Positions 3 through 46,286 are shown, counted from the first letter of the stretch. The stretch is DNA of 64,000 nucleotides from Planctomycetota bacterium (GCA_014193115.1 BJHQ01000005.1:50982-114981); one strand, 5' to 3'. Notes: generated from the letters alone by a model not told the origin. Program-made: numbers and translations.

Positions 3-452
3 GTCGCCAGCACCAAGCGCAGCTATGGCCAGGTCCGGGATCGCAGCCTGCCCCATCGCGTCGTCGTGCTCGGTCTGTGCCACCACGACGGCCGTTATCT
101 TGTGGCCAAACGTCCTGCCGACCGCCACGCCGGCGGGATGTGGGAACTGCCCGGAGGCAAGCGCGAGGTGGGTGAAGACGATCGCGTCGCATTGGCGAGG
201 GAATTAACTGAGGAACTTGGCGTCGAGCTGCTCGCCGCCCGCCACCTGATGCGCTACAGCTACAATTATCCTGATCGGGCTCTCACCTTTCAGGTCTATC
301 GCTGCCGCCTGTTCGATCCTCAGAACGCCCGGGCGTTGGACGGCCAAACCGACCTGCGCTGGGTCACGCCCCAGGGATTGCTCGCGCTGTCCTTCCCCCC
401 GGCCAATGCTGCGATCCTTGCCAGATTGCGCCGCTATCATCGGATTCTCTGA
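3..452 (+). CDS. NUDIX hydrolase (MutT-like); N-terminus unresolved or outside window
   Basis: Nudix box GGKREVGEDDRVALARELTEELGV (GX5EX7REUXEEXGU). The reading frame is open back to the window edge with no in-frame ATG upstream of VLGLCHHDG. Confidence 0.7.
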   Translation, partial: VASTKRSYGQVRDRSLPHRVVVLGLCHHDGRYLVAKRPADRHAGGMWELPGGKREVGEDDRVALARELTEELGVELLAARHLMRYSYNYPDRALTFQVYRCRLFDPQNARALDGQTDLRWVTPQGLLALSFPPANAAILARLRRYHRIL

Positions 453-469
453 TCCGCACCAATCACGAC

Positions 470-877
470 ATGATCGGAATACCCATGATCCGAAAAACCT
501 TCTCGCTGTACGCGCTGATCCTGATCATCGGCCTTACCGGCTGCATGGCGCGATCCGACGACTTCGTCGCCAGCCGGCTGTACCTTGGCCTCTCGAATAA
601 AGATGGGGAGATTTCCCAGGAGGATATCAGGGTTTTCACCGACCTTGAAGTGACGCCACGGTTCCCCGATGGCCTGACGATCTACCAGACCGAAGGCCGA
701 TGGCGGTCGAAAGATGGCACGATCGGCAAAGAGCGTTCCGTGGTCATCGAGATCATCCACCACGGCACCGCCGAGGATCACGCCCGCATCGAGCAGATCA
801 TCGACCGCTACAAGGCCCGTTTCCGCCAGGAATCCGTGCTGCTGGTGGTGACCCGGCCGACGGTCGAGTTCCGTTGA
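470..877 (+). CDS. DUF3574-family lipoprotein
   Basis: Signal peptide with lipobox LTGC. Conserved DUF3574-like segment YLGLS..GEISQEDIRVFTDLEVTPRFPDGLTIYQTEGRWRS...VVIEIIHHGTAEDHARIEQIIDRYKARFRQESVLLV. Confidence 0.6.
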   Translation: MIGIPMIRKTFSLYALILIIGLTGCMARSDDFVASRLYLGLSNKDGEISQEDIRVFTDLEVTPRFPDGLTIYQTEGRWRSKDGTIGKERSVVIEIIHHGTAEDHARIEQIIDRYKARFRQESVLLVVTRPTVEFR

Positions 878-1410
878 ACGTTCCGCCCGCCACCGGCGAC
901 CGCCGCTTTCAGCCGTATTATTGCGAGGAGAACATCTGGCATCTCGCCGCCGATCCGGCGCTGGGTGAGGGTGAGCGGGCAGCGTTGGTGATCAGTGGAA
1001 CCGGCGGGACCGTCGCGTTCTGGGAGCAACGTGCCGGGCCGGAGAACGGTCCGATCCTGTGGGATTACCACGTCGTGTTGCTGGCCAGCGGTCCGGCGTG
1101 GACCATTTGGGATTTTGATTGCCGCCGTGGCTGTCCGCTGCCTGCGGCGGCTTGGCTGGCAGCCTGTTTTCCATGCCCGGAACGGATCCGGTTGCGGTTT
1201 CAACCCAGATTCGCCTGGTTTTCAGCGGAGGACTGGCGAAACCGATTCAGCAGCGACCGTGCCCACATGCGCGATGCCGCTGGCGGTTGGCTGCAACCAC
1301 CGCCACCCTGGCCGGCAATCCAGGCAGGGGATCTGACACTGGACCTGGCCATCGCAGCAGCCCGCCAAGGATCCGACCTGCGCGGTCTTTCAGAACGCCT
1401 GCGAGTTTGA
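874..1410 (+). CDS. Protein N-terminal glutamine amidohydrolase homolog (Ntaq1/WDYHV1, Nt_Gln_amidase family); probable TTG start
   Basis: YYCEENIWHL matches eukaryotic CYCEENIWKL and GPILWDYHVVLL matches GPVIWDYHVVLL. SDRAHMRDAAGGWLQPPPPWP matches [21 protein letters not shown]. The Cys-His-Asp triad positions are conserved. Confidence 0.7.
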   Translation: MNVPPATGDRRFQPYYCEENIWHLAADPALGEGERAALVISGTGGTVAFWEQRAGPENGPILWDYHVVLLASGPAWTIWDFDCRRGCPLPAAAWLAACFPCPERIRLRFQPRFAWFSAEDWRNRFSSDRAHMRDAAGGWLQPPPPWPAIQAGDLTLDLAIAAARQGSDLRGLSERLRV

Positions 1411-1722
1411 CCAGATAGCGTACAGACGATCCGCGAGATGAAACGGTCATGATGCTCATCCTTGCCTGTCCAGGCTGGGCTTGAGCAAAGATACATCGCT
1501 TTCGCGTGGGCGGCAAATGTTCCATGATCGGTTGTGGCTCGCCACTGCTCACGTTCGATCCGTTTTGGCAAGGGACATGGCGTTCCTGGCCCAGGCATTT
1601 CGCCACAGCGCAAGCCGCTGATTTCCCTCGGCCAGGCCAGCATGACCACGAACCGGAGCGGAACCGGATCAACCGCCGGTTCTGCGCGATAGCCATTTCC
1701 CAAAGGTGGGTATGACCCATCC

Positions 1723-3524
1723 GTGCTTGCCGAGCCGCTTCCTGGGTTGAAGAACAGCGTCGCCCGCCCGAGTCGGCTCCGGATCGTGGATCTGCTGATG
1801 ATTCTGGGGATCATCGGTGTGGTGGTCGTTGCCATGTCCAGTCCTGGACATCCGGGCGGTGGTCCGGTCCAGCGCCAGGTCGCCATCGATCTGTCCTTCG
1901 CGGCGCTGCCCGGATACACCCTGGCATCGCTCCTGCGCGGCATGGCCGCCTATGCCATTTCGCTGGTTTTCACCTTGCTGGTCGGCTATTGGGCGGCGAA
2001 GCACGTAGCGTCCTCGCGGGTGCTGCTGCCGCTGCTCGACCTGTTGCAGAGCATCCCGGTGCTCGGATTCATGCCGGTGCTGGTGATCGGGTTGATCACG
2101 CTTTTCCCAGGATCGGACACCGGTCTCGAACTGGCGGCGATCCTGATGATCTTCACCGGGCAGGTGTGGAACATGACGTTCAGCTTCCACCAGAGCCTGA
2201 CTGCATTGCCCAGGGATCAGGTCGAAGCGGCGGAAGCCTTCCGCTTCGGCTGGTGGCGGAAGCTGCGTTGCCTGGAGCTGCCCTTCGCCACCACTGGCCT
2301 GGTCTGGAACAGCATGATGAGCATGGCCGGCGGCTGGTTCTTCCTGATGATCAGCGAATCATTTCGGCTCGGCGATCAGGACTTCAGGCTGCCTGGCATC
2401 GGGTCCTACATGAGCGTTGCCATGGAACGCGGTGATTGGACGGCGATGGTCGCCGGAGCGGCTGCCATGATCGTGATGATCGTGGTGCTCGACCAGCTGC
2501 TGTGGCGGCCGCTGGTGGTGTGGGCGGAACGGTTCCGGAGCGAGGAGTCATCGAGCGTCGTGGCGCAGCGATCGTGGGTCCTCGATCTGCTTCGGCGCTC
2601 GCGTCTCATCACCAGCATCCGCCATCTGCTGGCTCCGCGGAATCCGCAGGTTCCTGAGCGCAGCGGCCGGCCCGCTCTGCCGGTTCAGCCCACTGCGGCA
2701 CCCCAGCCTCGCTTCGGCCTGGCGGCCGTTCCGCCCGGACTAGCTGAGCGCATCGGCCAGTGGTTGGCCTGGGCCGGACTGGTGGTGCTGGTCGCCGCTC
2801 TGGTCTGGGGTTCTTGGGGTCTGATTGGACTGCTGGTGCAGGTCCCATGGAGCGATCCCGGCGAACGGCCAGAGGTCACTGGCTGGTCGGAGATCCTCGG
2901 CGGGACCGGCCTGACCGCACTGCGTGTCCTCGGCACCGTCGTCTTGGGCACGCTCTGGGCCCTGCCGGCCTGGCCATCGGCCGGTCGCCGCGCTGGTCGC
3001 AGTTCCTGCAGCCGGTGGTGCAGGTCGCCGCGTCTTTCCCCGCGCCGATGTTGTTCCCGCTCTGCCTGCTCGCATTCAGGGCCATCGGCCTGCCCCTCGG
3101 GGTCGGGTCGATGCTGCTCATGCTGATGGGCACCCAGTGGTACATCCTGTTCAATGTCATTGCCGGATCCCAGGGCATCCCATCGGATCTGCGGGAATCG
3201 GCCGCATCCTTCCGGTTCAGCCGGTGGCGGCGCTTCTGGACCTTGGAGGTCCCCGCGGTGTTCCCGAACCTGGTTACCGGCTGGGTCACCGCCGCCGGCG
3301 GTGCGTGGAACGCCTCGATCGTCGCTGAATACCTGACCTGGCACGGCGTGGTCACGTCGACGGTGGGCATCGGATCGACCATCAGCCAGGCGACCGCGCA
3401 TGGCGACCATCCCGGGCTGGCTGCCGCAGTGACCTGCATGGCGGTGGTGGTGGTTGCCATCAACAACACCTTGTGGCATCGCCTGTCCGCCCTCGCCAGC
3501 AACAGCTTTTCCCTGAGCAAATGA
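1723..3524 (+). CDS. Fused tandem ABC permease (NitT/TauT family, two BPD_transp_1 domains), interrupted by an apparent -1 frameshift near 2960-2970
   Basis: Two EAA loops: EAAEAFRFGWWRKLRCLELPFA and LRESAASFRFSRWRRFWTLEVPAVFP. Frame 1 reads ...VLGTLWALPA and frame 0 continues GLAIGRSPRWSQFLQPVVQVAASFPAPMLFPL, a typical permease segment. One missing base in ccggcc joins them. Confidence 0.7.
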
Positions 3525-3525
3525 G

Positions 3526-5319
3526 GTGACCGTGGCGATTCCCGATTCGGGCCAGAACCTGTGCGAGGTGGTCGGCGTCTCCCACGAGTTCCGGCAACCC
3601 AATGGCAGCCCGCTCACGGTGCTGCGCGACATCACCCTCGGGATTCGTCCGCGCGAGGTCATCGCCCTGCTCGGCCCGTCGGGCTGCGGCAAATCGACCC
3701 TGCTGCGGATCCTCGCCGGGCTGATCCAGCCGACCCAGGGAACCGTGCTCTATCGCGGAGCTCCCTTTCCCGGGATCAACCCCGGGATGGCGCTAGTCTT
3801 CCAGAGTTTCGCGTTGTTCCCGTGGTTGACGGTGGCTGAGAACATCCGCACGGTCCTGGAGGCTGCCGGCCTGACGCCGGGCGACTGCGCGGAACGGGCG
3901 GCCCATGCGATCAAGCAGGTCGGTCTGATCGGGTTTTCCGGCGCCTATCCCCGGGAACTTTCCGGCGGGATGAAGCAACGGGTGGGCGTCGCCCGGGCCA
4001 TCGCCCTGGATCCGGAAATCCTGTTCCTGGACGAGCCGTTCTGCCATGTCGACGCCCTGACCGCTGAAGGGCTGCGGGCCGAGGTCCTCGATCTGTGGGC
4101 GGCGCCCGGCGGCAATCCGTCTTCGATCCTGGTGGTCAGCCACGACATCGCCGAGGTCGTGCAGATGGCCGACCGCATCGTGCTGCTTGGGGCCAATCCT
4201 GGCCAGGTCCGGCAGATCGTGGCCAATCCCCTGCCCAGGCCACGGGATCTGCGCTCGGCTGCCGCTCAGCAGCTGATCGATCGCATGCATGACCTGATCA
4301 CCGGTCATGAACTGCCCGACCAGCAGCCCGACCAGACCGTGCTGGCGGCGAAGCCTGACCGCTTGGCGTCCCTGCCCTCTGTCCGCGCCAACCAGGTGAT
4401 GGGTCTGCTGGAGATGCTCGACTCGCGGGGTGGTACCGAGGATCTGTTCCGCTTGATCAAGGACACCGGCCACGAGTTCGGATCCTTGATCCAGGTGGTG
4501 AAGGCGGCGGAGCTGCTCGGCTGCGTCACCACTCCGAAGCGCCAGGTGGTGCTGAACGATGACGGCCGGAACCTGGTCCGCGCCGACCTGCCGCATCGGC
4601 CTGCGTTGTGGCGTGCCTGCCTCGAAAAGGTGGCCATCATCAACCAGATGGTCGAATTGGTGCGGCAACGCGGAGCAGTAGGCCTGAGCCGAGAGGTGCT
4701 GGTCGAAGCGCTGATCCTGGCCCTGCCGGGCGAGGACTATGACCAGCAGTTCGCCACCTTGATCGCCTGGTGCCGGATCGGCGAGCTGCTGAATTATGAG
4801 AGGAAAAACGGTGTCGTCTCGATCGCCACACCGACACGCCACATGCAGATTCCCCGGATCGACCTCGCCCCGTACCTGGATCCGCGGCGGATCCTGCTGA
4901 TGGAAGGCCAGCCAGCCAAGGCCGATGTGCTCGTTCGCCTGGCCGGTCTGTTCGCCACTTCGCCGGCGGTCGGCGATGGGCCAGCCTTCTCTGCCGCAGT
5001 CATGTCCCGCGAGGCCCTGGCCAATACCGGTGCCGGCCACCGCGTGGCGCTGCCCCACGCCCAGCTCGATTCGATCAGCGAGGTCGTGGCCGCCATCGCG
5101 GTGATCCGCGCCGGATGCGATTTCGCTGCAGCCGACGGCCAGACCGTGCAGGTCGTGGCAATGATCGCCGCACCGACCCGGGATCGGCCACGCTATTTGA
5201 AATTGCTGTCGGCGATCGCTGCCAGGCTCAGCCAGGAGGAGGTGCGTGAGCGGATCGTGCAGGCCAAGCATCCGGATCAGGTGATCGCGGCGATGGTTGA
5301 TCACGCAGTCCCTGGGTGA
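3526..5319 (+). CDS. ABC transporter ATP-binding protein (NitT/TauT-type) with a C-terminal AAA-associated-like middle domain and a PTS EIIA-2 (IIA-Ntr-like) domain
   Basis: GTG start with GAGG RBS. Walker A GPSGCGKST, signature LSGGMKQRV, Walker B ILFLDEP. C-terminal GHRVALPHAQLDS...VQVVAMIAAPTRDRPRYLKLLSAIAARL resembles PTS_EIIA_2 and retains the PH histidine. Confidence 0.75.
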   Translation: MTVAIPDSGQNLCEVVGVSHEFRQPNGSPLTVLRDITLGIRPREVIALLGPSGCGKSTLLRILAGLIQPTQGTVLYRGAPFPGINPGMALVFQSFALFPWLTVAENIRTVLEAAGLTPGDCAERAAHAIKQVGLIGFSGAYPRELSGGMKQRVGVARAIALDPEILFLDEPFCHVDALTAEGLRAEVLDLWAAPGGNPSSILVVSHDIAEVVQMADRIVLLGANPGQVRQIVANPLPRPRDLRSAAAQQLIDRMHDLITGHELPDQQPDQTVLAAKPDRLASLPSVRANQVMGLLEMLDSRGGTEDLFRLIKDTGHEFGSLIQVVKAAELLGCVTTPKRQVVLNDDGRNLVRADLPHRPALWRACLEKVAIINQMVELVRQRGAVGLSREVLVEALILALPGEDYDQQFATLIAWCRIGELLNYERKNGVVSIATPTRHMQIPRIDLAPYLDPRRILLMEGQPAKADVLVRLAGLFATSPAVGDGPAFSAAVMSREALANTGAGHRVALPHAQLDSISEVVAAIAVIRAGCDFAAADGQTVQVVAMIAAPTRDRPRYLKLLSAIAARLSQEEVRERIVQAKHPDQVIAAMVDHAVPG

Positions 5320-5420: not shown

Positions 5421-6800
5421 TTGCCTATCGCCAACGCCGTGGACCAGAACACGCCGATTCCTTGCGGGCCGCCAGGTCTCGACCAGCTGCTGGCGCGGCT
5501 GGGATCGCAGCCGCAGGAGCAGGACTGGGCCGAACTCGTCCGGTGCATGGCCAAGCCGGTGCACACGGTGGCCTTTCGGATCTGCGGCGATGCGAGCTTG
5601 GCGGAGGATGTCTCCCAGGAGACCTTCCTGGCGGTGGCCCGGGCCCTGCCCCGCTACCGCAGCCAGGGCGATCTCCAGGCCAGAGCCTGGATCATGCGCA
5701 TCGCCGCCAATCGGGCGATCTCCATCACCGGGCGGCAGCCGCGGCATCGGCGCATCTTCACTGACGATCTCGCAGCGGCCGGTCCTGACGCGCCGTCAGG
5801 GGAGCTGCTCGACGCGGTGCGCAGCGAGATCTGCGACCTGCCAGACCGGTACCGGCTGCCTATCGTCCTGCGTTTCCTCGACGGCAGGAATTACGGAGAG
5901 ATCGCCAGCGTCCTGACCTGGACCGAGGCGCGGGCGCGAAAAGCCGTGGAACGCGGCTTGGACCTGTTGCGCAGCCGGCTGGCGCGCCGGGGCGTCCCGG
6001 CGTCACTGGCGCTGTGCGCGGCGTGGTGCAGCCAAGCAGGCGCGAGCGAGCCTCCGACGCCCCTGGCTTTGACCGGCGCCCTCGCCCGCCGGCCGGAGGT
6101 CACCGCCTGGCCGTTGACCAGCTCAGTCTTTGGCGCAGTCATCGGCTCGGCCATCGTCGCCGTCCTGGCGACGACGGTGGCGATCATCACGACCAGCAAT
6201 CCCAGCGCGGCGCCAAGCTCCACCACGGTAGGCACCCCGGCCCTCGAACGCTTTATCGCGGCGTTCCGGGCTGATCATCCTGCGACGCGGCGGCGCGACA
6301 CCCTGGAGCGGTTTGAGGCTGGAACTTGGCAGATGGAGGGTCCATGGCGAACGCTTGGCGATGGGACAGCCGCCATCGATCTGCCCGCGAGCAAGGATTG
6401 GACCGAGGCTCGGCTGGTCCTCGACCTCCCGCTCGACCTGGAACACGGCAACGCTCAATTGCTGGCGATCCGATGCGACCAAGCGGTTGAGGATGGTCGA
6501 TTCGCCATTGGGCTAGCCGGATTCGTCGCAAACAAGCAGGTGTTCGACTACCAGGTGGGCCGGGGCGATCGCCAAGCCGCCGAGTCGTTCTCTCGTGTTG
6601 CCGGAAAACTGGCGATGGCGATCCGGATCGACCGGCAAGGAGCGAGGCTCCTGGTGGATGAACGGAGCGATCTGCCCACCCGCAGTCTCGCCGAGCTTGG
6701 GGTATCTGCCGATCGCATCCGCCTGGGCGTGGTGGTTGCCGCCCGTGGCGCCGCCGTCGCCGGGCACATTCAGGTGGTGCAGATCCTGACCGCGCCGTAA
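5421..6800 (+). CDS. ECF (sigma-70 family) sigma factor fused to a C-terminal transmembrane helix and a ~230-aa extracytoplasmic domain
   Basis: Sigma region 2 (ETFLAVARALPRYRSQGDLQARAWIMRIAANRAIS) and region 4 HTH (YGEIASVLTWTEARARKAVERGLDLL). A TM helix VFGAVIGSAIVAVLATTVAIITT follows. The ORF runs a further ~230 aa with no stop. Confidence 0.65.
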   Translation: MPIANAVDQNTPIPCGPPGLDQLLARLGSQPQEQDWAELVRCMAKPVHTVAFRICGDASLAEDVSQETFLAVARALPRYRSQGDLQARAWIMRIAANRAISITGRQPRHRRIFTDDLAAAGPDAPSGELLDAVRSEICDLPDRYRLPIVLRFLDGRNYGEIASVLTWTEARARKAVERGLDLLRSRLARRGVPASLALCAAWCSQAGASEPPTPLALTGALARRPEVTAWPLTSSVFGAVIGSAIVAVLATTVAIITTSNPSAAPSSTTVGTPALERFIAAFRADHPATRRRDTLERFEAGTWQMEGPWRTLGDGTAAIDLPASKDWTEARLVLDLPLDLEHGNAQLLAIRCDQAVEDGRFAIGLAGFVANKQVFDYQVGRGDRQAAESFSRVAGKLAMAIRIDRQGARLLVDERSDLPTRSLAELGVSADRIRLGVVVAARGAAVAGHIQVVQILTAP

Positions 6801-7055: not shown

Positions 7056-10000
7056 ATGGAGCTCCCCATGCGACTGAGCCGTTTTCCGGTTTGGATCTAC
7101 CTCGTATTTGCCCTGGCCCTGATGGCGGCGATCCCTGCGGTGGAGACCGTCCCCTTTGGTACGGGCCGACTGATCGGCGACGTCGGAGTCGACGGCGTCC
7201 GCCTCGACTGGAACCTCGCGGCGGAAGGGGGCTATCTGGTCGAACGGCGCTCGGATGGCCGGTTCGTGGAGGTTGCTCGGCTTCCCGCCGGTGCCACCGG
7301 AATGACCGATCCGGTTCGCTTCGGGCAGTTCCGCTGGCGGGTCACAGCACTCGATCGCCGTGGTCGGCCAGAGTCGCGATCGGCCGAGCTGGTGCTGGCT
7401 GTGGAGGTGGTGCAGCGGGATGCAGGCGGAACCGTGCTGCGCTACGGCGATACGCCCAGATCAGATCTGGTTGGCGCCACTGCGTCGCCGCTGGCCGCTG
7501 CGGGGCTCACCGACCCGGCCGTTGCTCAAGCCAATGCCGTCACTTTGAGCGGCGATTACCGCATCGACGCCCTGCTCGGCGATGCCCTGCAACCTGGATT
7601 TACGCCGGTGTCCGATCTGAAATTCGCCTTCTCCACCGCCCCCGGCACCGTCCCCAGCGAAGGGATCAAGGCGAATTACCGCCTGATCTTCGCACGGTTG
7701 GCCCAGATCATCCCAGTCACTTGCACCGAGGTCGCCACCGGCGGCAACATCCTCATCAAACTCGCCCCGGTCGGCTATGGGATGGCAGGCCCCGGCCTGG
7801 TCATGCTCAACGCGAGCTACGACCGCACCGGCGACACCAATGGCTTTCGCAATCCGCCAGGATCCCACGGCTTCCAGGCCCTGGTCCATGAACTCGGGCA
7901 CGCCCTTGGGCTCAAGCATCCCTTCGACGGCAACATCCACCTTCCTCCGGCCGAGGATACCCAGGCGCACACGGTGATGACCTACAATTTCTCCGCCAAT
8001 GAACCCGGGACGTTCATGCCCTACGATATCCTGGCGCTGCAATACCTGTACGGGAGGCCGACCGCCGGGACCGGGGGCACCTATGCCTTCTCGACCCCGT
8101 GGACCTATCAGCGCAACGGGCAGACCTGGTTCGCAACGACCTGGACCACCCGCCAATGCCTCTGGGGGACCGGGGCAGACGTGCTCGATTTTTCTGGACT
8201 GGCGGCAGGGTCCTACCGGTTCGATCTCAATCCCGGAGGCCGCCTGGGAACCACCGGTGCGGTATCGGCAAGCACCTTCACCAACGGCACGGTTCTGGCC
8301 TACGGTTCATCGTTTCCGGCCATCGTCACCTCCATCGGCAATGACGAGGTGACGCTGAGCAGCCCAGCCAATCTGATCAGGGGCTATGTCGCCGGACGCA
8401 CGTGCGGGGCCGACCGCATGCTCAGCGGTCGTCCGGACGATCGCCTCGACCTGTCGGCCTTTCCCCGCAGTGCGGTGCAACGGACTCGTCAGGGCGACGA
8501 CCTGCGCCTCGACCTGCCGAGCGGGATCGGTTCGATCACCATACCCGGGTTCTATGCCGCGGGCTGGATCCAGGTGGTCTATGCCGACAGCCATCCGCCG
8601 GTGGCCTCCAGCCAGGATTTGCAGGCGATCGAGAACCTGGCGCTGCCGATCACCCTGGCCGCCAGCGATGCGGATGGAGACGCACTGGCTTGGACGGTGC
8701 AGGCGCCAGCACGGGGCCGCCTGCTCGGGACGGCGCCTTCGCTGATCTATCTGCCGCCGGCCAATTGGACTGGAACCGACACGGTCGCGTTTTTCGTGAA
8801 CGATGGCAAGGAAACGTCGAACACTGCCCAGGTGTCGATTGCCGTCCGTGCACCTGGCGTTACCCCGACCGTGGAAGCCGGACCCGACCGCTCCACCAAC
8901 CGCTTCACGCCCATCACCCTGTCCGGCACCGCCACCGACGCATCGGGTCAGGCGCTGTCGCTGACCTGGTCCCAGGACTCCGGCCCTGAAAAGACGGTGT
9001 TCACCAGCCCGGTTGGCGGGTCGGTGACCGCCGCTTTCACCGCGGTCGGCACCTACCAGCTGCGCCTGAGCGCCACCAATGGCACCGCTACTGCCAGCGA
9101 CACCACCACCGTCACCGTGGTTCCCAGCCAAAATCCCGGGGTCGTTTCGTTCACCGCCGCGACCGTTGCGGTGCGCGAAGCCTCCGGACGGGTCACGGTC
9201 ACCGTCCAACGCACTGGTGGGGATCACGGCCAAGCGTCGATCTCATGGAGGACGGTGGCGATCACGGCCACCGAAGAAGATTACATGCGCGGCGTTGGTG
9301 GCATCGTCAGCTGGAATGACCAGGATGACGAGACCCAACAGATTGACCTCTCCATCTACGACAACCTTCTCGTCGATGGTCCGCGTACCTTCCGGTTTGA
9401 ACTCTATCGGCCCACCGGCGGGGTCGTGCTCGGATCACCGGCAACCCTGCTGGCGACCATCGTCGATGATGACGGGGTCAACCGGCCGCCGACCGCCACG
9501 TCGGCGAGCGGGAGCGTGGTTCAAGACGGCTCCCTGCCCTTGGTGCTGACCGCATCCGATCCGGACAACGACCCGTTGAGCTGGACGGTTCAAGCTCCGG
9601 CCCACGGCGTCCTTGCGGGCACTGCGCCGCATCTGACGTACACCCCGGACAGTGGCTACCGCGGCACGGATGCCGTGGTCTTCAGAGTTTCCGATACCCG
9701 GGCCCAATCGCCCAGCGCGACCGTGGCCATCACCGTGCAGGCGGTGAACCGTCCGCCCAGGCCAAGCGCCGGTCCCGACCGGAAGCTGGTCCTGCCCGCC
9801 TCCATCGTCCTGGCCGGAGGCGGCTCTGATCCGGATGGGGATTCGCTGGCGTGGTCGTGGACCAAGGTCAGCGGGCCAAGCGCGCTCACCATTGCCAGCC
9901 CGACCGATCCGCAGTCGTCGGCCACATTCGCCGGCGCCGGTACCTACCGGCTCCGCCTGGCCGCCTCCGACGGCACCGCCACCGTCGCCGACGAGGTCGT

Positions 10001-13000
10001 CTTCATCACCAGGACGAACACTGCTCCAGTCGCCAATGCAGGTCCTGATCGGGTGCTGTCGAGCCCAGGAGCAGTGACAATCAACGGGGAAGGACCTGAT
10101 GCTGATGGCGATCCCGTGCAGGCGCTGTGGACCCAGGTTTCTGGTCCGGCTGCCGCGGTGATCGACCAGCCGCGTCAACTGACAACGTCCATCCGCTTTC
10201 CAGTGACCGGGATCTACCGGCTGGTGTTGACGGTGGCCGACGGCCTGGCAACGACCAGTGACGAGGTGGTGGTCTCGGTGGGGAATCCTGGCGTGGCCCT
10301 GGATACTATTGAGTCGAAGGGCAATACCTCGTTGCTGAAGCATCCCATTGACAAGAAATACTTCGCCCGACCAGGAACGGGGACGCCGGTCCAGATCAGC
10401 AATCTGGGTCAGCAGATTTACGAAGGCATATATTCCGGCTGGACCCTGCTCGCGGCAGAAAATCTCAACAGCGAAAATCGTGCGCTCTGGCGCAACGAAT
10501 CAGGCCATTACCTGCACATCTGGCATCTGAATGCAAATTGGCAATGGACTTCCTCAGAAGGGCAGTGGAACTTCGGGACGGCCGAGGCGAACGCCCTCGA
10601 GGTCGCATTCCAAATTGATGCTGACGGGAATGGGACGATCGGCGGACCAGTGAATCAAGCCCCGACGTTCACCACCCATCCGCCGAACGCCGTGGTGACC
10701 GCAGGTCAGACCGCGACGTTCACCGTCGTCGCCAGCGGTACCCCGGCGCCGACGTACCAGTGGCAATCCGCACCGGCCACGGGCGCGTTCACCAACATCA
10801 GCGGCGCGACCGCAGCGAGCTACACCACGTCGGCGACGACGCTGGCGCAGAGCGGTACCCGCTTCCAGGTCATCGCGACCAACAGCGTGAGTGCGGTGAC
10901 TTCGGCCGTGGCGACGTTGACGGTCAATCCCGCCCCGGTCGGCCCGACGTTCACCACCCATCCGGGGAACGCCGTGGTGACCGCAGGTCACACCGCGACA
11001 TTCGCCGTCGTCGCCAGTGGCACCCCGACGCCGACGTACCAGTGGCAATCCGCACCGGCCTCGGGCGCGTTCGCCAACATTAGCGGCGCGACCGCGGCGA
11101 GCTACACCACGCCGGCGACGACGCTGGCGCAGAGCGGTACCCGCTTTCAGGTCATCGCGACCAACAGCGTGAGCGCGGTAACTTCGTCGGTGGCGACGTT
11201 GACGGTCAATCCCGCCCCGGTCGGCCCGACGTTTACCACCCAACCGGTGAACGCCGCGGTGACCGCAGGTCAAACCGCGACGTTCACCGTCGTCGCCAGC
11301 GGCACCCCGGCGCCGACGTACCAGTGGCAATCCGCACCGGCCTCGGGCGCGTTCGCCAACATTAGCGGCGCGACCGCGGCGAGCTACACCACGCCGGCGA
11401 CGACCTTGGCGCAGAATGGTACCCGCTTCCAGGTCATCGCGACCAACAGCGTGAGTGCGGTGACTTCGTCGGTGGCGACGTTGACGGTCAACCCCGCCCC
11501 GGTCGGCCCGAGGTTTACCACCCAACCGGTGAACGCCGCGGTGACCGCAGGTCAGACCGCGACGTTCACCGTCGTCGCCAGCGGCACCCCGGCGCCGACG
11601 TACCAGTGGCAATCCGCACCGGCCACGGGCGCGTTCACCAACATCAGTGGCGCGACCGCGGCAAGCTACACCACGCCGGCGACGACCTTGGCGCAGAACG
11701 GTACCCGCTTCCAGGTCATCGCGACCAACAGCGTGAGCGCGGCAACTTCGTCGGTGGCGACGCTGACGGTCAATGTGACCGCGGGCGCCAATCTGGTGCT
11801 GAACTGGACCTTGGACGAGTCCAGCGGTACGGGCGCTGCCGATGCTTCCGGCCGCGGCAATACGGGTGCGGTGGGCGGCGGCGCGACCTGGGTCGCCGGC
11901 AAGGTCGGCGGGGGGCTCCAGTTCGATGGGAACAGCGGGGCCGTGGTCGCCACAAACGTAGGCGGCCTGCCAAGCGGCAATCAGCCGCACACCCTGGCGG
12001 CCTGGGTGAAAGTGACGGCCCTGCCAGCGAAACGAGCCTGGATCGCCCTGCTGGGGGACGTGGGCAGTGGTGCGCACCATTGGCTGATCAACAGCAATGG
12101 TGTTACCCAGTTCGGGGTGTGGAACGAGAACCAGGTGGCTCCGGTGCTCGGCGTCGGGACCTGGAAACACCTCGCCGTCACCTTCGATGGCGCGACCCAG
12201 ACCGGCTACGTCGATGGGGTGGCGATTGGCAGCACGGCAGCGACCTACAACCTCAAAGGCGTCTCCCTGAAGGTGGCCAGGGCGGTGGATTGGGAGAACG
12301 CATTTAACGGCCTGGTGGATGACGTCCGCGTCTACACCAGAGCCTTGACCGCCAGCGAAGTCTCGGCGCTGGCAGGCGCGACCCTCAACACCGGTCTAGT
12401 GCTCAACTGGAGACTGGACGAGACCAGCGGTGGCGTCGCAGCCGATTCTTCTGGCCGCAGCAATTCAGGGGTGGTAGGCGGAGGCGTGACCTGGACGGCC
12501 GGCAAGCTCGGTGGGGCGCTCCAGTTCGATGGAGTGAACGGCGCAGTGGCCACGACCAGCCTGGGAGGGCTGCCGACCGGCAACCAGGCGCACACCTTGG
12601 CGGCGTGGGTGAAGGTCACTGCCCTACCGGCGAACCGCGCCTGGATCGCCCTGCTCGGCGATGCGGGGGTCGGAGCGCACCACTGGTTGATCTACCGCTC
12701 CGGAGCCACGCAGTTCGGAGCGTGGAGCTCCGGCCAGGTCACGCCTGCGCTTGGCGTCGGCACCTGGAAGCACCTCGCCGTTACCTTCGATGGCACCACG
12801 TTGACCGGATACATGAATGGAGTGGCGATCGGAACCACCGCGGCGACCTTCAGTCTCAAGGGCGTATCGCTAAGCCTGGCCCGAGCCCAGGAGGGTGAAA
12901 ACGCCTTCAAAGGCCAGGTGGATGACGTCCGCGTCTACGCTCGGGCCTTGACTGCCAGCGAGATTTCCGCCCTTGCCGGAACGACTGCGCAAGCGGCCGC

Positions 13001-13145
13001 CCTCGCCTTCACCGAGCCGGTGAACGAAACGGAAACTTCCACCGGCATCGGTGGAGGCAGCAGCGGCTGCGGGCTTGGCAGTGGATTGGCCCTGATCGGC
13101 CTTGCATTCGGGATCGCCCTGGGAGGACGAAGGAGGTGGAGCTGA
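7056..13145 (+). CDS. Secreted multidomain metzincin (M10/serralysin-like) protein with cadherin/PKD/Calx-beta/Ig/LamG domains and a MYXO-CTERM-like tail
   Basis: Signal peptide. VHELGHALGLKHPFDG (HEXXHXXGXXH), Met-turn VMTYNF and YDILALQYLYG. PKD-like and Big/cadherin-like domains, a Calx-beta domain, four near-identical ~94-aa Ig repeats and two LamG-like domains. C-terminus SSGCGLGSGLALIGLAFGIALGGRRRWS. Confidence 0.8.
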   Translation: MELPMRLSRFPVWIYLVFALALMAAIPAVETVPFGTGRLIGDVGVDGVRLDWNLAAEGGYLVERRSDGRFVEVARLPAGATGMTDPVRFGQFRWRVTALDRRGRPESRSAELVLAVEVVQRDAGGTVLRYGDTPRSDLVGATASPLAAAGLTDPAVAQANAVTLSGDYRIDALLGDALQPGFTPVSDLKFAFSTAPGTVPSEGIKANYRLIFARLAQIIPVTCTEVATGGNILIKLAPVGYGMAGPGLVMLNASYDRTGDTNGFRNPPGSHGFQALVHELGHALGLKHPFDGNIHLPPAEDTQAHTVMTYNFSANEPGTFMPYDILALQYLYGRPTAGTGGTYAFSTPWTYQRNGQTWFATTWTTRQCLWGTGADVLDFSGLAAGSYRFDLNPGGRLGTTGAVSASTFTNGTVLAYGSSFPAIVTSIGNDEVTLSSPANLIRGYVAGRTCGADRMLSGRPDDRLDLSAFPRSAVQRTRQGDDLRLDLPSGIGSITIPGFYAAGWIQVVYADSHPPVASSQDLQAIENLALPITLAASDADGDALAWTVQAPARGRLLGTAPSLIYLPPANWTGTDTVAFFVNDGKETSNTAQVSIAVRAPGVTPTVEAGPDRSTNRFTPITLSGTATDASGQALSLTWSQDSGPEKTVFTSPVGGSVTAAFTAVGTYQLRLSATNGTATASDTTTVTVVPSQNPGVVSFTAATVAVREASGRVTVTVQRTGGDHGQASISWRTVAITATEEDYMRGVGGIVSWNDQDDETQQIDLSIYDNLLVDGPRTFRFELYRPTGGVVLGSPATLLATIVDDDGVNRPPTATSASGSVVQDGSLPLVLTASDPDNDPLSWTVQAPAHGVLAGTAPHLTYTPDSGYRGTDAVVFRVSDTRAQSPSATVAITVQAVNRPPRPSAGPDRKLVLPASIVLAGGGSDPDGDSLAWSWTKVSGPSALTIASPTDPQSSATFAGAGTYRLRLAASDGTATVADEVVFITRTNTAPVANAGPDRVLSSPGAVTINGEGPDADGDPVQALWTQVSGPAAAVIDQPRQLTTSIRFPVTGIYRLVLTVADGLATTSDEVVVSVGNPGVALDTIESKGNTSLLKHPIDKKYFARPGTGTPVQISNLGQQIYEGIYSGWTLLAAENLNSENRALWRNESGHYLHIWHLNANWQWTSSEGQWNFGTAEANALEVAFQIDADGNGTIGGPVNQAPTFTTHPPNAVVTAGQTATFTVVASGTPAPTYQWQSAPATGAFTNISGATAASYTTSATTLAQSGTRFQVIATNSVSAVTSAVATLTVNPAPVGPTFTTHPGNAVVTAGHTATFAVVASGTPTPTYQWQSAPASGAFANISGATAASYTTPATTLAQSGTRFQVIATNSVSAVTSSVATLTVNPAPVGPTFTTQPVNAAVTAGQTATFTVVASGTPAPTYQWQSAPASGAFANISGATAASYTTPATTLAQNGTRFQVIATNSVSAVTSSVATLTVNPAPVGPRFTTQPVNAAVTAGQTATFTVVASGTPAPTYQWQSAPATGAFTNISGATAASYTTPATTLAQNGTRFQVIATNSVSAATSSVATLTVNVTAGANLVLNWTLDESSGTGAADASGRGNTGAVGGGATWVAGKVGGGLQFDGNSGAVVATNVGGLPSGNQPHTLAAWVKVTALPAKRAWIALLGDVGSGAHHWLINSNGVTQFGVWNENQVAPVLGVGTWKHLAVTFDGATQTGYVDGVAIGSTAATYNLKGVSLKVARAVDWENAFNGLVDDVRVYTRALTASEVSALAGATLNTGLVLNWRLDETSGGVAADSSGRSNSGVVGGGVTWTAGKLGGALQFDGVNGAVATTSLGGLPTGNQAHTLAAWVKVTALPANRAWIALLGDAGVGAHHWLIYRSGATQFGAWSSGQVTPALGVGTWKHLAVTFDGTTLTGYMNGVAIGTTAATFSLKGVSLSLARAQEGENAFKGQVDDVRVYARALTASEISALAGTTAQAAALAFTEPVNETETSTGIGGGSSGCGLGSGLALIGLAFGIALGGRRRWS
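10650..11780 (+). repeat. Intragenic tandem repeat, ~282 bp x4, >90% DNA identity, encoding Ig-like domains
   Basis: PTFTT(H/Q)P.NA.VTAGQTATFTVVASGTP.PTYQWQSAPA.GAF.NISGATAASYTTPATTLAQ.GTRFQVIATNSVSAVTS.VATLTVNPAPVG is repeated four times. Unit starts are near 10662, 10941, 11226 and 11508. Confidence 0.85.
11780..12975 (+). repeat. Intragenic duplication of a ~590-bp LamG-like (Laminin_G_3) domain, two diverged copies
   Basis: LVLNW.LDE.SG...AAD.SGR.N.G.VGGG.TW.AGK.GG.LQFDG..GAV.T...GGLP.GNQ.HTLAAWVKVTALPA.RAWIALLGD.G.GAHHWLI appears twice. Confidence 0.8.
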
Positions 13146-13280: not shown

Positions 13281-16200
13281 ATGGAGCTCCCCATGCGACT
13301 GAGCCGTTTTCCGGATTGGATCTACCTCGTATTTGCCCTGGCCCTGATGGCGGTGATCCCTGCGGTGGAGACCGTCCCCTTCGGTACGGGCCGATTGATC
13401 GGTGACGTCGGAACCGACGGCGTCCGCCTCGACTGGAACTTCGCGTCGGAAGGGGGCTCCCTGGTCGAGCGGCGCTCGGATGGCCGGTTCGTCGAGGTCG
13501 CTCGGCTTCCGGCCGGTGCCACTGGAATGACCGATCCGGTTCGCTTCGGGCAGTTCCGCTGGCGGGTCACCGCCCTCGATCGCAGTGGTCGACAGATGGT
13601 GCGTTCGGCCGAACTGGTGCTGGCGGTGGAGGTGGTGCAGCAGGATGCTGGCGGAACTGTGCTGCGCTACGGAGATACGCCCCGACCAGGCCAGTTTGGT
13701 GCCGCTGCGTCGCCGCTGGCCGCTGCAGGACTCACTTCCCCGGCCGCGGCCCAAACGGATACCGTCACCATGAGCGGCGATTACCGCATCGATGCCCTGC
13801 TTGGTGATGCCCTTCAGGCCGGATTCATCCCGATCCGGACCTGGACCTACTCCTTCGCCACCGCTTCCGGCAGCGTCCCCAGTGATGCGATCAAGGCCAG
13901 TTATCGTCTGATCTTTGCAAACATGCCCCAGATCATCCCTGCCACCTTCACCGAGGTCGCCATCGGCGGCAACATTGGCATCGGACTCGGCCCAGCCGAC
14001 TATGCGATGGGCGGCGGCGGTTCGATCATCCTCAACCCAAGTTATGACCGCACCGGGGACACCAACGGCTTCCGTAATCCACCAGGTTCGCACGGCTTCC
14101 AGGCCCTGGTCCACGAACTCGGGCATGTCCTCGGACTCAAGCATCCCCATGACGGCAATATCCACCTGCCGCCTGCGGAAAATTCCCAGGCCTACACGGT
14201 GATGACCTACAATTTTTCGGCCAATGAACCGGCGACCTTCATGCCCTACGATGTCATGGCCTTGCAGTACCTGTACGGCAAGCCGGCGGTCGGCGCCGCG
14301 AGCACCTATGTCTTCTCGACCCCATGGACCTTCAGGCGCAACGGGCTGACCTGGTTCGCAACGACCCTGACCACCCGCCAGTGCATCTGGGGGACCGCTG
14401 CCGACGTGCTCGATTTTTCGGCTCTGGCGGCTGGATCCTACCGCTACGACCTCAATCCCGGAGGCCGCCTGGGAACCACCAGTGCGGTGTCGGGAACGAC
14501 CTTTTCCAGCGGCACCGTCCTGGCCCAAGATTCATCCTTCGCTTCCATCATTACCTCCATCGGCAATGACGAGGTGACGTTGAGCAGCCCAGCCAACCTG
14601 ATCAGCGGTTTTGTCTCCGGACGTTCGTGCGGAGCAGACCGCCTGCTTGGCGGCCGTCCGGACGATCGCCTCGACCTGTCGGTGTTCTCGCGCAGCGCGG
14701 TGCTGCGGACCCGTCAGGGCGACGATCTGCGCCTCGACCTGCCAGGCGGGATCGGGTCGATCACCATCGCCGGATTTTATGCCGCGGGGTGGGTCCAGGT
14801 GATTTATGCCGACAGCCATCCACCGGTGGCCTCCAGTCTGAATCTGCAGGCGGTCGAGAACCAGGCCCTGCCGATCACCCTGGTTGCCAGCGATGCGGAT
14901 GGCAATCCCTTGAGCTGGACGGTGCAGGCACCGGGACGGGGCCGCCTGATCGGGGCCGCGCCGTCGCTGATCTACCTGCCGCCAGCCAATTGGACTGGCA
15001 CCGATACTTTCACGTTTTCGGTGAATGATGGCCTGGATTCCTCCAATACTGCCCAAGTATCGATCACCGTCCTTCCGCCTGGCTCCATCCCGTCGGTGGA
15101 GGCCGGACCCGATCGCACCACCAATCGCTTCTTACCCATCGCCCTGTCCGGCACCGCCACGAACGCGTCCGGTCAGGTCCTGGCTCTGTCCTGGTCGCAG
15201 GACTCCGGCCCCGCCCAGACCGTTTTCAGCAGCCCGGCGGGCGGGTCGGCGACTGCTGCCTTCGCGGCCGTTGGCACGTACCACCTGCGCCTGACCGCCA
15301 CCAACGGCTCCGCCACCGCTAGCGACACCACCACCGTGACCGTGGTTCCCAGCTCAAATCCTGGCGTCGCCTCTTTCACCGCCGCGACCGCTGCGGTGAG
15401 CGAATCGTCCGGGCGAGTTACCGTTACCATCCAACGCACCGATGGGGATCACGGTCAGGCCTCGATCTCATGGAGAACGGTGGCGATCACCGCCACCGAA
15501 GACGATTATATCCACGGCATTGGCGGCACCGTCACATGGAATGACCAGGATGACGAGGCCCAGCAGTTCGACCTCTCCATTTACGACAACGACCTCGTCG
15601 ATGGTCCGCGTACGTTCCGGTTTGAACTCTATCGACCCACCGGCGGGGTCGTGCTCGGATCGCCGGCGATTCAGGTGGTGACCATAGTCGATGATGATGG
15701 CGTCAACCGGCCGCCGACTGCCACGTCGGCGAATGCGAGCGTACTCCAGGATGGCGTTCTATCCTTGGTGCTGACCGCCTCCGATCCAGATCATGACCCG
15801 TTGATCTGGACCGTGCGGCCGCCTGCTCATGGCGTCCTGACCGGCACCCCACCCAACCTGAGCTATGCACCTGCCCACGGATATCGCGGCACGGACGCCG
15901 TGGTCTTCTCGGTCTCCGATACCCGGGTCCAGTCGCCCAACGCGACCGTGGCCATCACCGTGCAGGCAGTGAACCATCCGCCTGTGGCGAGCGCTGGTCC
16001 CGACCGGAATCTGGTCCTGCCCGCTGCCATCGCCTTGGCTGGAGGCGGTTCAGATCCGGATGGCGATTCGCTGACCTGGTCGTGGACCAAGGTCAGCGGG
16101 CCAAGCGCGCTCACCATTGCCAATCCGACCGATCCGCGTTCCTCGGCCACGTTCGCCGCCGTCGGCACCTACCGGCTCCGCCTGACCGCCTCAGACGGCT

Positions 16201-16679
16201 CTGCCACCGCCGCCGACGAGGTCGTCATCGCCATCAGGGCCAACACCACCCCGGTCGCGAATGCGGGTCCCGATCTGGTTCTGTTGGGTCCAGGATCAGC
16301 CACGATCGGCGGGCAGGCCCCTGATGCTGATGGCGATCCGGTGCAGACTTTATGGACTCAGGTCTCCGGCCCAGTTGTCGCGGTGATCGACCAGCCGCGC
16401 CAACTGGCGACTTCCATCCGCTTCCCGGTCACCGGAATCTATCGGCTGTTGTTGACCGTGACCGACGGCCTGGCTTCGACCAGCGATGAGGTGGTCGTAT
16501 CGGTTGCCGTCCGGCGCATGATCGAGATTCGCCTGGTCCCCAATGGGGTGGATGCCGCCATCCAACTGGACGGCCGAAATCCGGATCAGGTCAGGCCTGA
16601 CGGCACTGCCCAGTTCACCACCTCGGCTTCATCCAACCACGTGGCATCCTTCCTGACGCCTCCGAGAGGAAAGAACTGA
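13281..16679 (+). CDS. Truncated paralog of the upstream metzincin protein: protease, cadherin-like, PKD and Calx-beta domains only, with no Ig/LamG region and no C-terminal tag
   Basis: About 85% aa identity to residues 1-1075 of the 7056..13145 product, including HELGHVLGLKHPHDG. Homology ends near 16497 and a unique ~60-aa tail follows. The ~75 bp upstream of the ATG are almost identical between the two genes. Confidence 0.75.
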   Translation: MELPMRLSRFPDWIYLVFALALMAVIPAVETVPFGTGRLIGDVGTDGVRLDWNFASEGGSLVERRSDGRFVEVARLPAGATGMTDPVRFGQFRWRVTALDRSGRQMVRSAELVLAVEVVQQDAGGTVLRYGDTPRPGQFGAAASPLAAAGLTSPAAAQTDTVTMSGDYRIDALLGDALQAGFIPIRTWTYSFATASGSVPSDAIKASYRLIFANMPQIIPATFTEVAIGGNIGIGLGPADYAMGGGGSIILNPSYDRTGDTNGFRNPPGSHGFQALVHELGHVLGLKHPHDGNIHLPPAENSQAYTVMTYNFSANEPATFMPYDVMALQYLYGKPAVGAASTYVFSTPWTFRRNGLTWFATTLTTRQCIWGTAADVLDFSALAAGSYRYDLNPGGRLGTTSAVSGTTFSSGTVLAQDSSFASIITSIGNDEVTLSSPANLISGFVSGRSCGADRLLGGRPDDRLDLSVFSRSAVLRTRQGDDLRLDLPGGIGSITIAGFYAAGWVQVIYADSHPPVASSLNLQAVENQALPITLVASDADGNPLSWTVQAPGRGRLIGAAPSLIYLPPANWTGTDTFTFSVNDGLDSSNTAQVSITVLPPGSIPSVEAGPDRTTNRFLPIALSGTATNASGQVLALSWSQDSGPAQTVFSSPAGGSATAAFAAVGTYHLRLTATNGSATASDTTTVTVVPSSNPGVASFTAATAAVSESSGRVTVTIQRTDGDHGQASISWRTVAITATEDDYIHGIGGTVTWNDQDDEAQQFDLSIYDNDLVDGPRTFRFELYRPTGGVVLGSPAIQVVTIVDDDGVNRPPTATSANASVLQDGVLSLVLTASDPDHDPLIWTVRPPAHGVLTGTPPNLSYAPAHGYRGTDAVVFSVSDTRVQSPNATVAITVQAVNHPPVASAGPDRNLVLPAAIALAGGGSDPDGDSLTWSWTKVSGPSALTIANPTDPRSSATFAAVGTYRLRLTASDGSATAADEVVIAIRANTTPVANAGPDLVLLGPGSATIGGQAPDADGDPVQTLWTQVSGPVVAVIDQPRQLATSIRFPVTGIYRLLLTVTDGLASTSDEVVVSVAVRRMIEIRLVPNGVDAAIQLDGRNPDQVRPDGTAQFTTSASSNHVASFLTPPRGKN

Positions 16680-38007: not shown

Positions 38008-38190
38008 GCCTCGGGTCCGTCAGCGTGCAGGGGTGCCTGGTCGAGACCCGAAACGGCTAAGCGTGCATCCATTGGCAAAGGTTGCGAAGCAGGACTTCGA
38101 TGCACAAGAGGGCCTCGCGTCGCTCGGCGATCGGTGTCTCCGCATCACCCGAATATCACGACATGAGTACTGCCGCCAGACCAGTGTAAG

Positions 38191-38236
38191 TCATTATCGG
38201 ATAATGAGATAATAATTATTAATGATATCGCATATG
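38191..38236 (+). promoter_or_regulatory. AT-rich palindromic operator-like element of GATAAT/ATTATC hexamers (Fur-box-like) upstream of the 2668-aa gene
   Basis: TCATTATCgGATAATGA is an 8-1-8 inverted repeat and TAATAATTATTA is a 12-bp palindrome. The block is about 85% AT in a ~67% GC genome, 140 bp upstream of the ATG at 38376. Confidence 0.5.
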
Positions 38237-46253: not shown

Positions 46254-46286
46254 ACCCGCATCACCACCGATCGGAAAGTCCACACT

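Follow-up and report, generated by a model that had tools for sequence, protein, structure and literature searches.

Two secreted proteins of a freshwater planctomycete share a putative cysteine-type C-terminal sorting signal related in design to MYXO-CTERM

Introduction

When two otherwise unrelated secreted proteins of one genome end in the same kind of cysteine-containing tail, do the tails form a common sorting signal, and to which class of signal do they belong? The question is raised by a 64,000-nucleotide stretch of DNA from a Planctomycetota bacterium (GCA_014193115.1, BJHQ01000005.1:50982-114981; hereafter the window, with positions counted from its first letter). A 2029-residue open reading frame (ORF) in this window (protein 1) and a protein of immunoglobulin (Ig)-like repeats (protein 2) both finish in a glycine-rich linker, one cysteine, a hydrophobic segment and a cluster of arginines. 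An initial annotation assigned these tails to the MYXO-CTERM class of sorting signals and took them to point to a myxobacterial-type host. The analysis presented here favors a different answer, to which we give a probability of about 0.6: the two tails represent one lineage-specific, cysteine-type tripartite signal for sorting or anchoring in freshwater Planctomycetota, divergent from MYXO-CTERM.

Curated MYXO-CTERM signals are restricted to the Myxococcota, together with Bradymonadales that carry an MrtP-type enzyme, and singletons found elsewhere were judged to be false (bioRxiv 10.1101/2023.06.07.544157). Their partners are the myxosortases MrtX, MrtC and MrtP, CPBP/Rce1-type glutamic intramembrane proteases of the Myxococcota and Bradymonadales. 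According to the author of the model, lineage-specific forms of the signal co-evolve with the enzyme, score low and need custom models (10.1101/2023.06.07.544157). In Myxococcus the cleavage of MYXO-CTERM by MrtX has been shown to depend on the cysteine; lipidation and routing through the type II secretion system are the model proposed by the authors of that work (PMC11980579).

Results

The two tails share a motif that is kept at the peptide level

Translation of the window confirmed the sequences and coordinates first reported for both C-termini. The 2029-residue ORF ends ...GGGSSGCGLGSGLALIGLAFGIALGGRRRWS (within a longer C-terminal stretch, ...TSTGIGGGSSGCGLGSGLALIGLAFGIALGGRRRWS, followed by the stop), and protein 2 ends ...GGGGGGGGCGVGLGGLSALIGLAFFLDSLAKRRRG (longer stretch ...GGGGSSGGGGGGGGCGVGLGGLSALIGLAFFLDSLAKRRRG, followed by the stop). 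The two tails are built alike, from a Gly/Ser-rich linker, a lone cysteine in the motif G-C-G-[LV]-G, approximately 16-18 hydrophobic residues, and Arg-Arg-Arg close to the stop codon, from which it is separated by two residues in tail 1 and by one in tail 2. The helix region of tail 1 contains no charged residue or proline, and that of tail 2 has an aspartate between the hydrophobic core and KRRR.

These two tails were the only ones returned by a loose six-frame scan of the window for a hydrophobic stretch with a terminal basic cluster (ORFs of at least 80 residues). A strict pattern, consisting of [GS]{2}CG, 14-26 residues, [RK]{3}, at most four further residues and the end of the protein, was matched by 2 of the 402 six-frame ORFs of the window, compared with 0 of 5,270 control ORFs drawn from 883 kb of unrelated GC-rich loci. 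Alignment of tail 1 to tail 2 gives 60% identity, with G-C-G, the 7-mer ALIGLAF and RRR invariant; when both tails were shuffled with their composition preserved, a common 7-mer or longer appeared in 0.09% of trials (P ~9e-4). The DNA encoding ALIGLAF differs between the tails by four synonymous and no non-synonymous changes, and the cysteine is encoded by TGC in tail 1 and by TGT in tail 2. Because the differences in ALIGLAF are exclusively synonymous, the similarity has been kept at the peptide level and does not reflect a recent copy of the DNA. In another assembly, a variant of protein 2 (P0242, 92% identical) retains GCGVGLGGLS and KRRRG unchanged, with four conservative changes in the helix (A to I, A to M, L to M and L to W). 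Taken together, the common motifs, the synonymous-only core, the shuffle test and the variant indicate that the tail peptide is under selection.

Wider searches with the tail itself added no further members. A tail-only profile run against 5.8 billion proteins yielded 136 candidates, none with E <=10, a null result that is to be expected because short low-complexity tails cannot gain significance in a database of that size. A DNA pattern for ALIGLAF had at least 120 matches in a genome collection; those listed all lie in ordinary membrane helices, with no C-terminal Cys tail and no LBMAG53 (the genome that carries the window) among them. In metagenome contigs of the Joint Genome Institute, 600 pattern matches to the tail were obtained, of which 0 were confirmed by tblastn. 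A scan for terminators and promoters around the tail gave nothing above chance.

The tails are carried by unrelated multi-domain proteins of a planctomycete

Exact protein look-ups placed both tail genes in the Lake Biwa freshwater metagenome-assembled genome (MAG) LBMAG53, on a single contig of 328,597 bp. This MAG is labelled Planctomycetota, an assignment made for the Lake Biwa MAGs with PhyloPhlAn and GTDB-Tk (bioRxiv 10.1101/655167), and the myxobacterial-type host of the initial annotation is therefore not borne out. The coordinates of the genes and of the parts of the tails are collected in Table 1.

Table 1. Coordinates of the tail proteins, their C-terminal tails and the tandem paralog in the window.
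Feature	Position	Strand	Details
Tail protein 1 gene	7068..13145	+	GDY12713.1, LBMAG53_15910, 2025 aa; longest ORF 7056..13145, 2029 aa
Signal peptide, protein 1	7068..7145 (end approximate)	+	MRLSRFPVWIYLVFALALMAAIPAVE...; Sec type, predicted by sequence inspection
Tail 1, Gly/Ser-rich linker	13044..13067	+	GIGGGSSG
Tail 1, signature Cys codon	13068..13070	+	TGC, residue 2005 of the 2029-aa ORF, in G-C-G-L-G
Tail 1, hydrophobic membrane-spanning segment (predicted)	13074..13127	+	LGSGLALIGLAFGIALGG
Tail 1, basic end	13128..13145	+	Arg-Arg-Arg, Trp-Ser, stop
Tandem paralog of protein 1	13281..16679	+	1132 aa, directly downstream of protein 1
Tail protein 2 gene	47345..48700	+	GDY12735.1, LBMAG53_16130, 451 aa; ORF translated from 47327
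Tail 2, Gly-rich linker	48563..48616	+	GGGMGGGGSSGGGGGGGG
Tail 2, signature Cys codon	48617..48619	+	TGT, in G-C-G-V-G
Tail 2, hydrophobic segment	48623..48682	+	VGLGGLSALIGLAFFL, then DSLA
Tail 2, basic end	48683..48700	+	Lys-Arg-Arg-Arg, Gly, stop

The N-terminus of protein 1, MRLSRFPVWIYLVFALALMAAIPAV..., resembles a signal peptide by inspection. It precedes a protease region with the metzincin-type zinc motif HELGHALGLKH, to which the serralysin and matrixin models match weakly, followed by Big_9, PKD and Calx-beta repeats, a W_rich_C domain, four I-set Ig domains, two LamG domains and the tail. Protein 2 consists of a textbook signal peptide (MLMRFLVLLLLSAPVFA/AV, again by inspection), four Big_7 Ig-like domains, an 18-residue Gly-rich linker and the tail. 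Outside the tail the two carriers are unrelated, with a best BLASTP E value of 0.077 between them. The domains of this cargo (zinc protease, PKD, Ig and LamG) match those of the MYXO-CTERM cargo of Myxococcus (PMC11980579, Table S1 legend).

The tandem paralog is 80% identical to protein 1 across residues 1-1075, then diverges and reaches a stop 57 residues further on. It has no W_rich_C, Ig or LamG domains and no tail, so that the entire C-terminal half of protein 1 is missing from it, and the initial annotation was correct in describing it as a truncated paralog without the tag.

The four I-set domains of protein 1 are themselves near-identical, being encoded by a tandem repeat of 4.0 copies of 282 bp with 94% matches (10661..11774), which suggests a recent repeat expansion. 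The gene directly upstream of that for protein 1 (5421..6800) encodes an extracytoplasmic function (ECF) sigma factor that has one membrane helix and carries a long extension at its C-terminus. Pairs of ECF sigma and anti-sigma factors also flank the Cys-tail protein P0086 in a separate locus (L121, 7472..8017 and 13378..13914), and Cys-tail surface proteins may be under ECF control.

The tails fall below the thresholds of the known sorting-signal models

We scanned whole proteins and isolated tails against NCBIfam release 20 (E <=10) and Pfam, and repeated this with shorter pieces of the tails; TraA's MYXO-CTERM peptide, taken from the legend of Fig. 1F in PMC11980579, served as a positive control. 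Neither the whole proteins nor the isolated tails gave a sorting-signal match in either collection. With shorter fragments, tail 1 scored 9.9 bits (E 0.95) on the MYXO-CTERM hidden Markov model TIGR03901.2, for which the cut-off is 20 bits, and tail 2 did not register, compared with 20.6 bits for the TraA control in the same run. The scan of both C-termini with TIGR03901 thus failed to support the class membership initially proposed. The alignment of tail 1 nevertheless extends nearly from end to end of the model (residues 4-31 to model positions 2-32 of 34), and MYXO-CTERM is the sole sorting model to register for this tail.

No other class claims either tail, and the reassignment by HMM that the initial annotation named as refuting it did not occur: the remaining C-terminal sorting models of the library (among them GlyGly-, PEP- and JDVT-CTERM and the newer PFE, PID and PVV) matched neither. 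These absences are informative, because the scan is able to pick up small C-terminal models, as seen from the match of Heimdall-CTERM to the protein P0101 (E 0.07). The diagnostic residues of the individual families point the same way. The tails have no counterpart of the nearly invariant Asp-Pro of JDVT-CTERM (NF033191, cut-off 27 bits), and neither helix contains the invariant proline of Synerg-CTERM; neither family matched. In place of the Cys-Gly-Pro of CGP-CTERM, an archaeal signal of the Thermococcales, they have Cys-Gly-Leu and Cys-Gly-Val, and the host is a bacterium. GlyGly-CTERM (TIGR03501, cut-off 15.5 bits), with a Gly-Gly signature that includes no cysteine, did not match either tail, nor did PEP-CTERM (TIGR02595), the Pro-Glu-Pro of which is absent ahead of the tail helices. 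The recently curated 113-position model NF058595 (invert_tail, cut-off 37 bits) matched neither the whole proteins nor the tails alone. This last model weakly matches (15.6 bits) the ordinary N-terminal signal of a small lipoprotein (...FLVGCGG...) encoded at 48746..49276.

Two further points separate the tails from MYXO-CTERM. The invariant cysteine of that family often occurs as GCGC, and each window tail has one cysteine, in GCG, with the second absent; moreover, the Planctomycetota label of LBMAG53 places it outside the MYXO-CTERM range of Myxococcota and Bradymonadales. Haft gives eight generic attributes for C-terminal sorting signals (10.1101/2023.06.07.544157, section 5), and the tails present seven of them, the eighth being the number of copies per genome, of which two were seen in 64 kb. 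Among the attributes present are a basic cluster at the end, a common motif (G-C-G-[LV]-G, in both tails and in P0242, a very small sample), a helix followed by 2-5 basic residues, signal peptides (by inspection), carriers that are otherwise unrelated, and homologues that have no signal or a different one. Of the proposed MYXO-CTERM assignment, the tripartite design, the signature cysteine and the secreted multi-domain cargo therefore stand, while the family model fails and the host is out of range. The tails are not to be filed as members of MYXO-CTERM, and appear to be its relatives in design.

Homologues are mostly tail-less, and a few carry related cysteine tails

We queried 1.84 billion representative sequences by HMMER with the unique first 520 residues of protein 1 and obtained 150 homologues. 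Tripartite tails were found in two of these, both of the Cys type and behind a Gly-rich linker, and the other 148 have none. P0318, from another metagenome (contig ERZ27280287:k141_2468401), ends in KCGLGGSLSLVVVALLAFRRRR (in full ...GGSGSNKCGLGGSLSLVVVALLAFRRRRES), with a C-G-L-G-G motif strikingly like that of the window tails; taken alone, this tail scores 24.0 bits on TIGR03901.2, above the cut-off of 20. The tail of P0298 (...GGGGGGGGGGCDIAPNTSPLSSWLLLMTLLTLGVIVHRRILSAN) scores 16.7 bits on JDVT-CTERM and 14.1 bits on MYXO-CTERM, both below cut-off. A search with the C-terminal 950 residues of protein 1 was dominated by Ig-repeat proteins and returned no informative tails.

Most homologues of protein 2 are likewise tail-less, and several have Cys-type tails: P0019 (GGGGCGLTGLELLLAWAVVRRRR), P0012 (MCGCTGLELLLALGAAWARRR; labelled Planctomycetota at NCBI) and P0054 (KRCGCGAASAPGVATQFALAGLLALAAAYFSRKQGL; also labelled Planctomycetota). 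Two different Cys-type tails, ...NDRCPIGALGAG...ALLRRR and ...GGGGGGGGGGGGCGATGLEALLLLLLLRSVVIQRR, occur 5 kb apart on a metagenomic contig of 73% GC (L123). On that contig the two tail genes (50..2107 and 7787..10333) flank genes for an imelysin, a di-haem oxidoreductase and an HTTM (vitamin-K carboxylase-like) protein.

The general absence of tails among the homologues is what is expected of a swappable sorting tag. Given the tails of P0318, P0298, P0019, P0012, P0054 and L123, those of the window belong to a continuum of Gly-linker/Cys/helix/Arg tails that borders on the MYXO-CTERM model, in line with the description of lineage-specific, enzyme-matched forms by the author of that model (10.1101/2023.06.07.544157).

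A candidate processing enzyme is absent from 82 kb around the tail genes

The search for a processing enzyme covered approximately 82 kb, comprising the 64-kb window (~45 ORFs assessed by Pfam), 10 kb downstream and 8.3 kb upstream, with the flanks taken from the identical scaffold_11 (202 kb) of ENA entry ERZ28619504. Genes for CPBP/Rce1 (PF02517), rhomboid, exosortase and sortase proteins were not found in this span. The 10 kb past the end of the window encode Pst/PhoU/PhoBR, MlaD, ProS and others; the 8.3 kb before its start encode MutY, a sigma-54 regulator and several single-helix proteins. The neighborhoods of three other Cys-tail proteins contain no CPBP, rhomboid or exosortase gene. 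Such an absence is expected if one housekeeping sorting enzyme serves many targets. In the literature searched we found no mention of myxosortase together with Planctomycetes, and no cysteine-type tag tied to Planctomycetota. As the myxosortase core has been reported solely from Myxococcota and Bradymonadales, a canonical myxosortase may be absent from the host.

Two products of the window were considered and rejected as parts of the machinery. The first, considered as a candidate intramembrane protease, is the only unannotated polytopic membrane protein of the window (50986..52431; 481 residues, eight predicted helices), which finds no match in Pfam, NCBIfam or PDB and does not contain the Glu-Glu motif of CPBP intramembrane proteases; a single-sequence AlphaFold model had a pLDDT of 46 and was unusable. 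It is translationally coupled, through an overlapping ATGA, to the ATPase of an ATP-binding cassette (ABC) transporter (50078..52431 for the pair), and is most simply read as an ABC-2-type permease. The second is the FGE-sulfatase-domain lipoprotein encoded upstream of protein 2, considered as a modifier of the cysteine. FGE-sulfatase-type enzymes recognise C-x-P-x-R, which is not present in the tail.

Other features of the neighborhood

The lipoprotein with the FGE-sulfatase domain (46287..47279) lies 65 bp upstream of the called start of protein 2 at 47345. In a protein from another metagenome (P0052) a Big_7-type domain (PF17957) and an FGE-sulfatase domain (PF03781) are fused, and this fusion suggests that the lipoprotein and the Big_7 Ig-repeat protein form a functional pair. 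Both genes belong to a block of lower G+C content (38000..48000; 0.55-0.60, compared with 0.63-0.70 on either side), which also contains a 2668-residue protein with Calx-beta and a weak Peptidase_M66 match (38247..46253) and which may be an acquired island. Tail 2, although encoded in this block, still matches the tail of protein 1, which is encoded in DNA of normal GC content.

Further upstream in the window, an ABC-transporter ATPase is fused to a C-terminal EIIA domain of the phosphotransferase system (PTS) (3526..5319; ABC_tran, AAA_assoc_C and PTS_EIIA_2), an uncommon architecture that suggests a transporter regulated by phosphorylation. Two adjacent genes lie 2.4-5.3 kb upstream of the window start (locus L128, 3003..5911). 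One encodes a 397-residue protein with a twin-arginine translocation (Tat) signal and faint matches to squalene-cyclase/prenyltransferase repeats, and the other a membrane-anchored protein of 572 residues with no Pfam match.

Discussion

That the two tails are a genuine shared signal for sorting or anchoring is, in our assessment, highly probable. How such a signal would work can be outlined from its sequence and from better-characterized systems. Sec would export both proteins through the N-terminal signal peptides that can be read from their sequences, after which the hydrophobic segment and the arginine cluster would stop transfer and leave the chain N-out/C-in in the cytoplasmic membrane, a topology predicted from the positive-inside rule together with the sequence. 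This would place the G-C-G-[LV]-G motif at the periplasmic face of the membrane, behind a flexible Gly-rich linker. By analogy with MYXO-, JDVT-, Synerg- and CGP-CTERM, the cysteine would be modified, probably with lipid. An intramembrane endopeptidase, most likely of the CPBP/Rce1 type, might subsequently cut off the helix and the arginine cluster, and the large adhesin/protease might remain lipid-anchored and be displayed at the cell surface, both steps being modelled on the known systems. The tail-less paralog would be released or soluble. Within this scheme, Cys-dependent processing as in a MYXO-CTERM-like mechanism is somewhat favored on grounds of analogy, and a CPBP-type enzyme has an even chance or slightly less.

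The tails can be compared with several known systems, and resemble each in part. With MYXO-CTERM (TIGR03901) they share the position at the extreme C-terminus, the Gly/Cys signature, the helix, the arginine cluster and a disordered linker in front, as well as cargo with signal peptides and PKD, Ig, LamG or zinc protease domains, and tail-less homologues; in addition, the near-identical tail of P0318 passes the model. Unlike that family, the window tails score below cut-off, have a single cysteine in GCG[LV]G in place of GCGC, have this cysteine next to a helix that is itself Gly-rich, and come from Planctomycetota. JDVT-, Synerg- and CGP-CTERM also begin a short C-terminal domain with an invariant cysteine, followed by a helix and basic residues, and in Synerg- and CGP-CTERM the distance from cysteine to helix is as short as in the window tails; these, however, lack the Asp-Pro, helix proline and Cys-Gly-Pro of the three families, respectively, and occur in another taxon (motifs from 10.1101/2023.06.07.544157). 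GlyGly-CTERM, the rhombosortase signal, has a similar Gly-rich stretch immediately before the helix and basic cluster, and similar cargo of large secreted hydrolases, but has no conserved cysteine.

Read backwards, as basic residues, helix, small residues and cysteine in the reverse of its own order, the tail also resembles the N-terminal lipoprotein signal (lipobox) handled by Lgt and LspA. Both the lipobox and the CAAX/Rce1 system mark a cut site by a modified cysteine beside a helix or short tail, a logic that has been proposed for MYXO-CTERM (PMC11980579). The window tail differs from the lipobox in being C-terminal, with the opposite topology, and has no defined lipobox or CAAX box. An inverted lipoprotein-type anchor is also what the name of NF058595 evokes (lipo-invert putative C-terminal anchoring domain), a likeness by name alone; its 113-position model matches neither tail.

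A number of observations weigh against a lineage-specific cysteine-type signal. Tail 1 falls short of the TIGR03901.2 cut-off and tail 2 does not register, and no other sorting model matches either tail. The tail cysteine adjoins the hydrophobic segment, at a point where TraA has a spacer of ~10 residues, and in tail 2 the sequence Asp-Ser-Leu-Ala separates the helix from the basic cluster. The examples from this genome number two, from a 64-kb window. Genes for an enzyme of a suitable type were not found in the ~82 kb around them, and matches to the core model of myxosortase (NF040914) were reported from Myxococcota and Bradymonadales only in a set of more than 14,000 proteomes (10.1101/2023.06.07.544157). 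Cleavage, lipidation and surface exposure are, finally, drawn wholly from analogy.

A bolder form of the preferred reading holds that the tails are an undescribed, Planctomycetota-specific fifth class of Cys-type signal with an enzyme of its own, unseen by the myxosortase models. We consider this possible but doubtful. If it were true, a CAAX-like route to the surface, in which the cysteine is modified and the tail then clipped, would reach the Planctomycetes-Verrucomicrobia-Chlamydiae (PVC) superphylum.

The alternative that survives best, though we think it unlikely, is a plain, uncleaved C-terminal anchor, in which the helix and RRR keep the proteins fixed to the cytoplasmic membrane on its periplasmic side and nothing in particular depends on the cysteine. 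A hydrophobic segment and a basic cluster are sufficient for stop-transfer, and such an anchor would agree both with the enzyme search around the genes and with the failure of every sorting model to reach its cut-off. Neither a Gly-rich linker nor conservation of G-C-G-[LV]-G would be called for in such an anchor, however, yet both features are common to two unrelated proteins; the motif is kept in P0242 despite drift in the helix, and recurs in P0318, P0019 and the L123 protein. The cargo, very large adhesin/proteases with Ig, PKD and LamG domains, is furthermore typical of proteins displayed at the surface.

Less probable again is the proposal of the initial annotation, that the tails are bona fide, low-scoring MYXO-CTERM signals served by an orthologous myxosortase of the MrtX, MrtC or MrtP type. 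The end-to-end alignment of tail 1 with TIGR03901.2, the only sorting model it registers with, is consistent with this, as are the 24-bit score of the similar P0318 tail and the low scores that the model's author expects of lineage-specific forms. Against it stand the scores of the window tails themselves, the single cysteine, the absence of GCGC and of a spacer between cysteine and helix, and a planctomycete host when curated signal and myxosortase core alike are found only in Myxococcota and Bradymonadales.

We regard as very improbable a GlyGly-CTERM-like signal that is cut at the glycine stretch by a rhombosortase-type rhomboid, with the cysteine incidental or serving as a small P1 residue. 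Both tails do have a long glycine run directly ahead of the helix, and TIGR03501 gives 12.8 bits for the related P0019 tail, against a cut-off of 15.5; neither window tail matches that model, however, the cysteine in GCG is foreign to GlyGly-CTERM, and the 82 kb contain no rhomboid gene. Chance likeness of two low-complexity hydrophobic C-termini is the least likely reading: although the sequences are short and rich in Gly, Ala and Leu, and HMMER searches with the tail profile found nothing significant, coincidence accounts poorly for the enrichment of the pattern over control ORFs, the result of the shuffle test, the synonymous-only changes in the core and the motif kept in P0242.

A lineage-specific cysteine-type tripartite signal thus remains the reading that we prefer. 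What is new here is a lineage-specific variant of the known Cys-type C-terminal signals, in a phylum for which the searched literature holds no documented case. It is a lead rather than a result, because the evidence consists of two genes, a few metagenomic relatives and analogy. C-terminal sorting tags determine the proteins that a bacterium presents at its surface, and each new tag described earlier led, through co-occurrence analysis, to a new enzyme: sortase, exosortase, rhombosortase and myxosortase. The cell envelope of the Planctomycetota is unusual and a matter of much debate, and the phylum has giant surface proteins in very large repertoires. With a lineage-specific tag, the surface proteins of uncultured freshwater planctomycetes could be catalogued, and the processing enzyme would come within reach of phylogenetic profiling; such a tag would also show whether Rce1-like lipidate-and-clip processing extends past the two lineages in which it has been curated.

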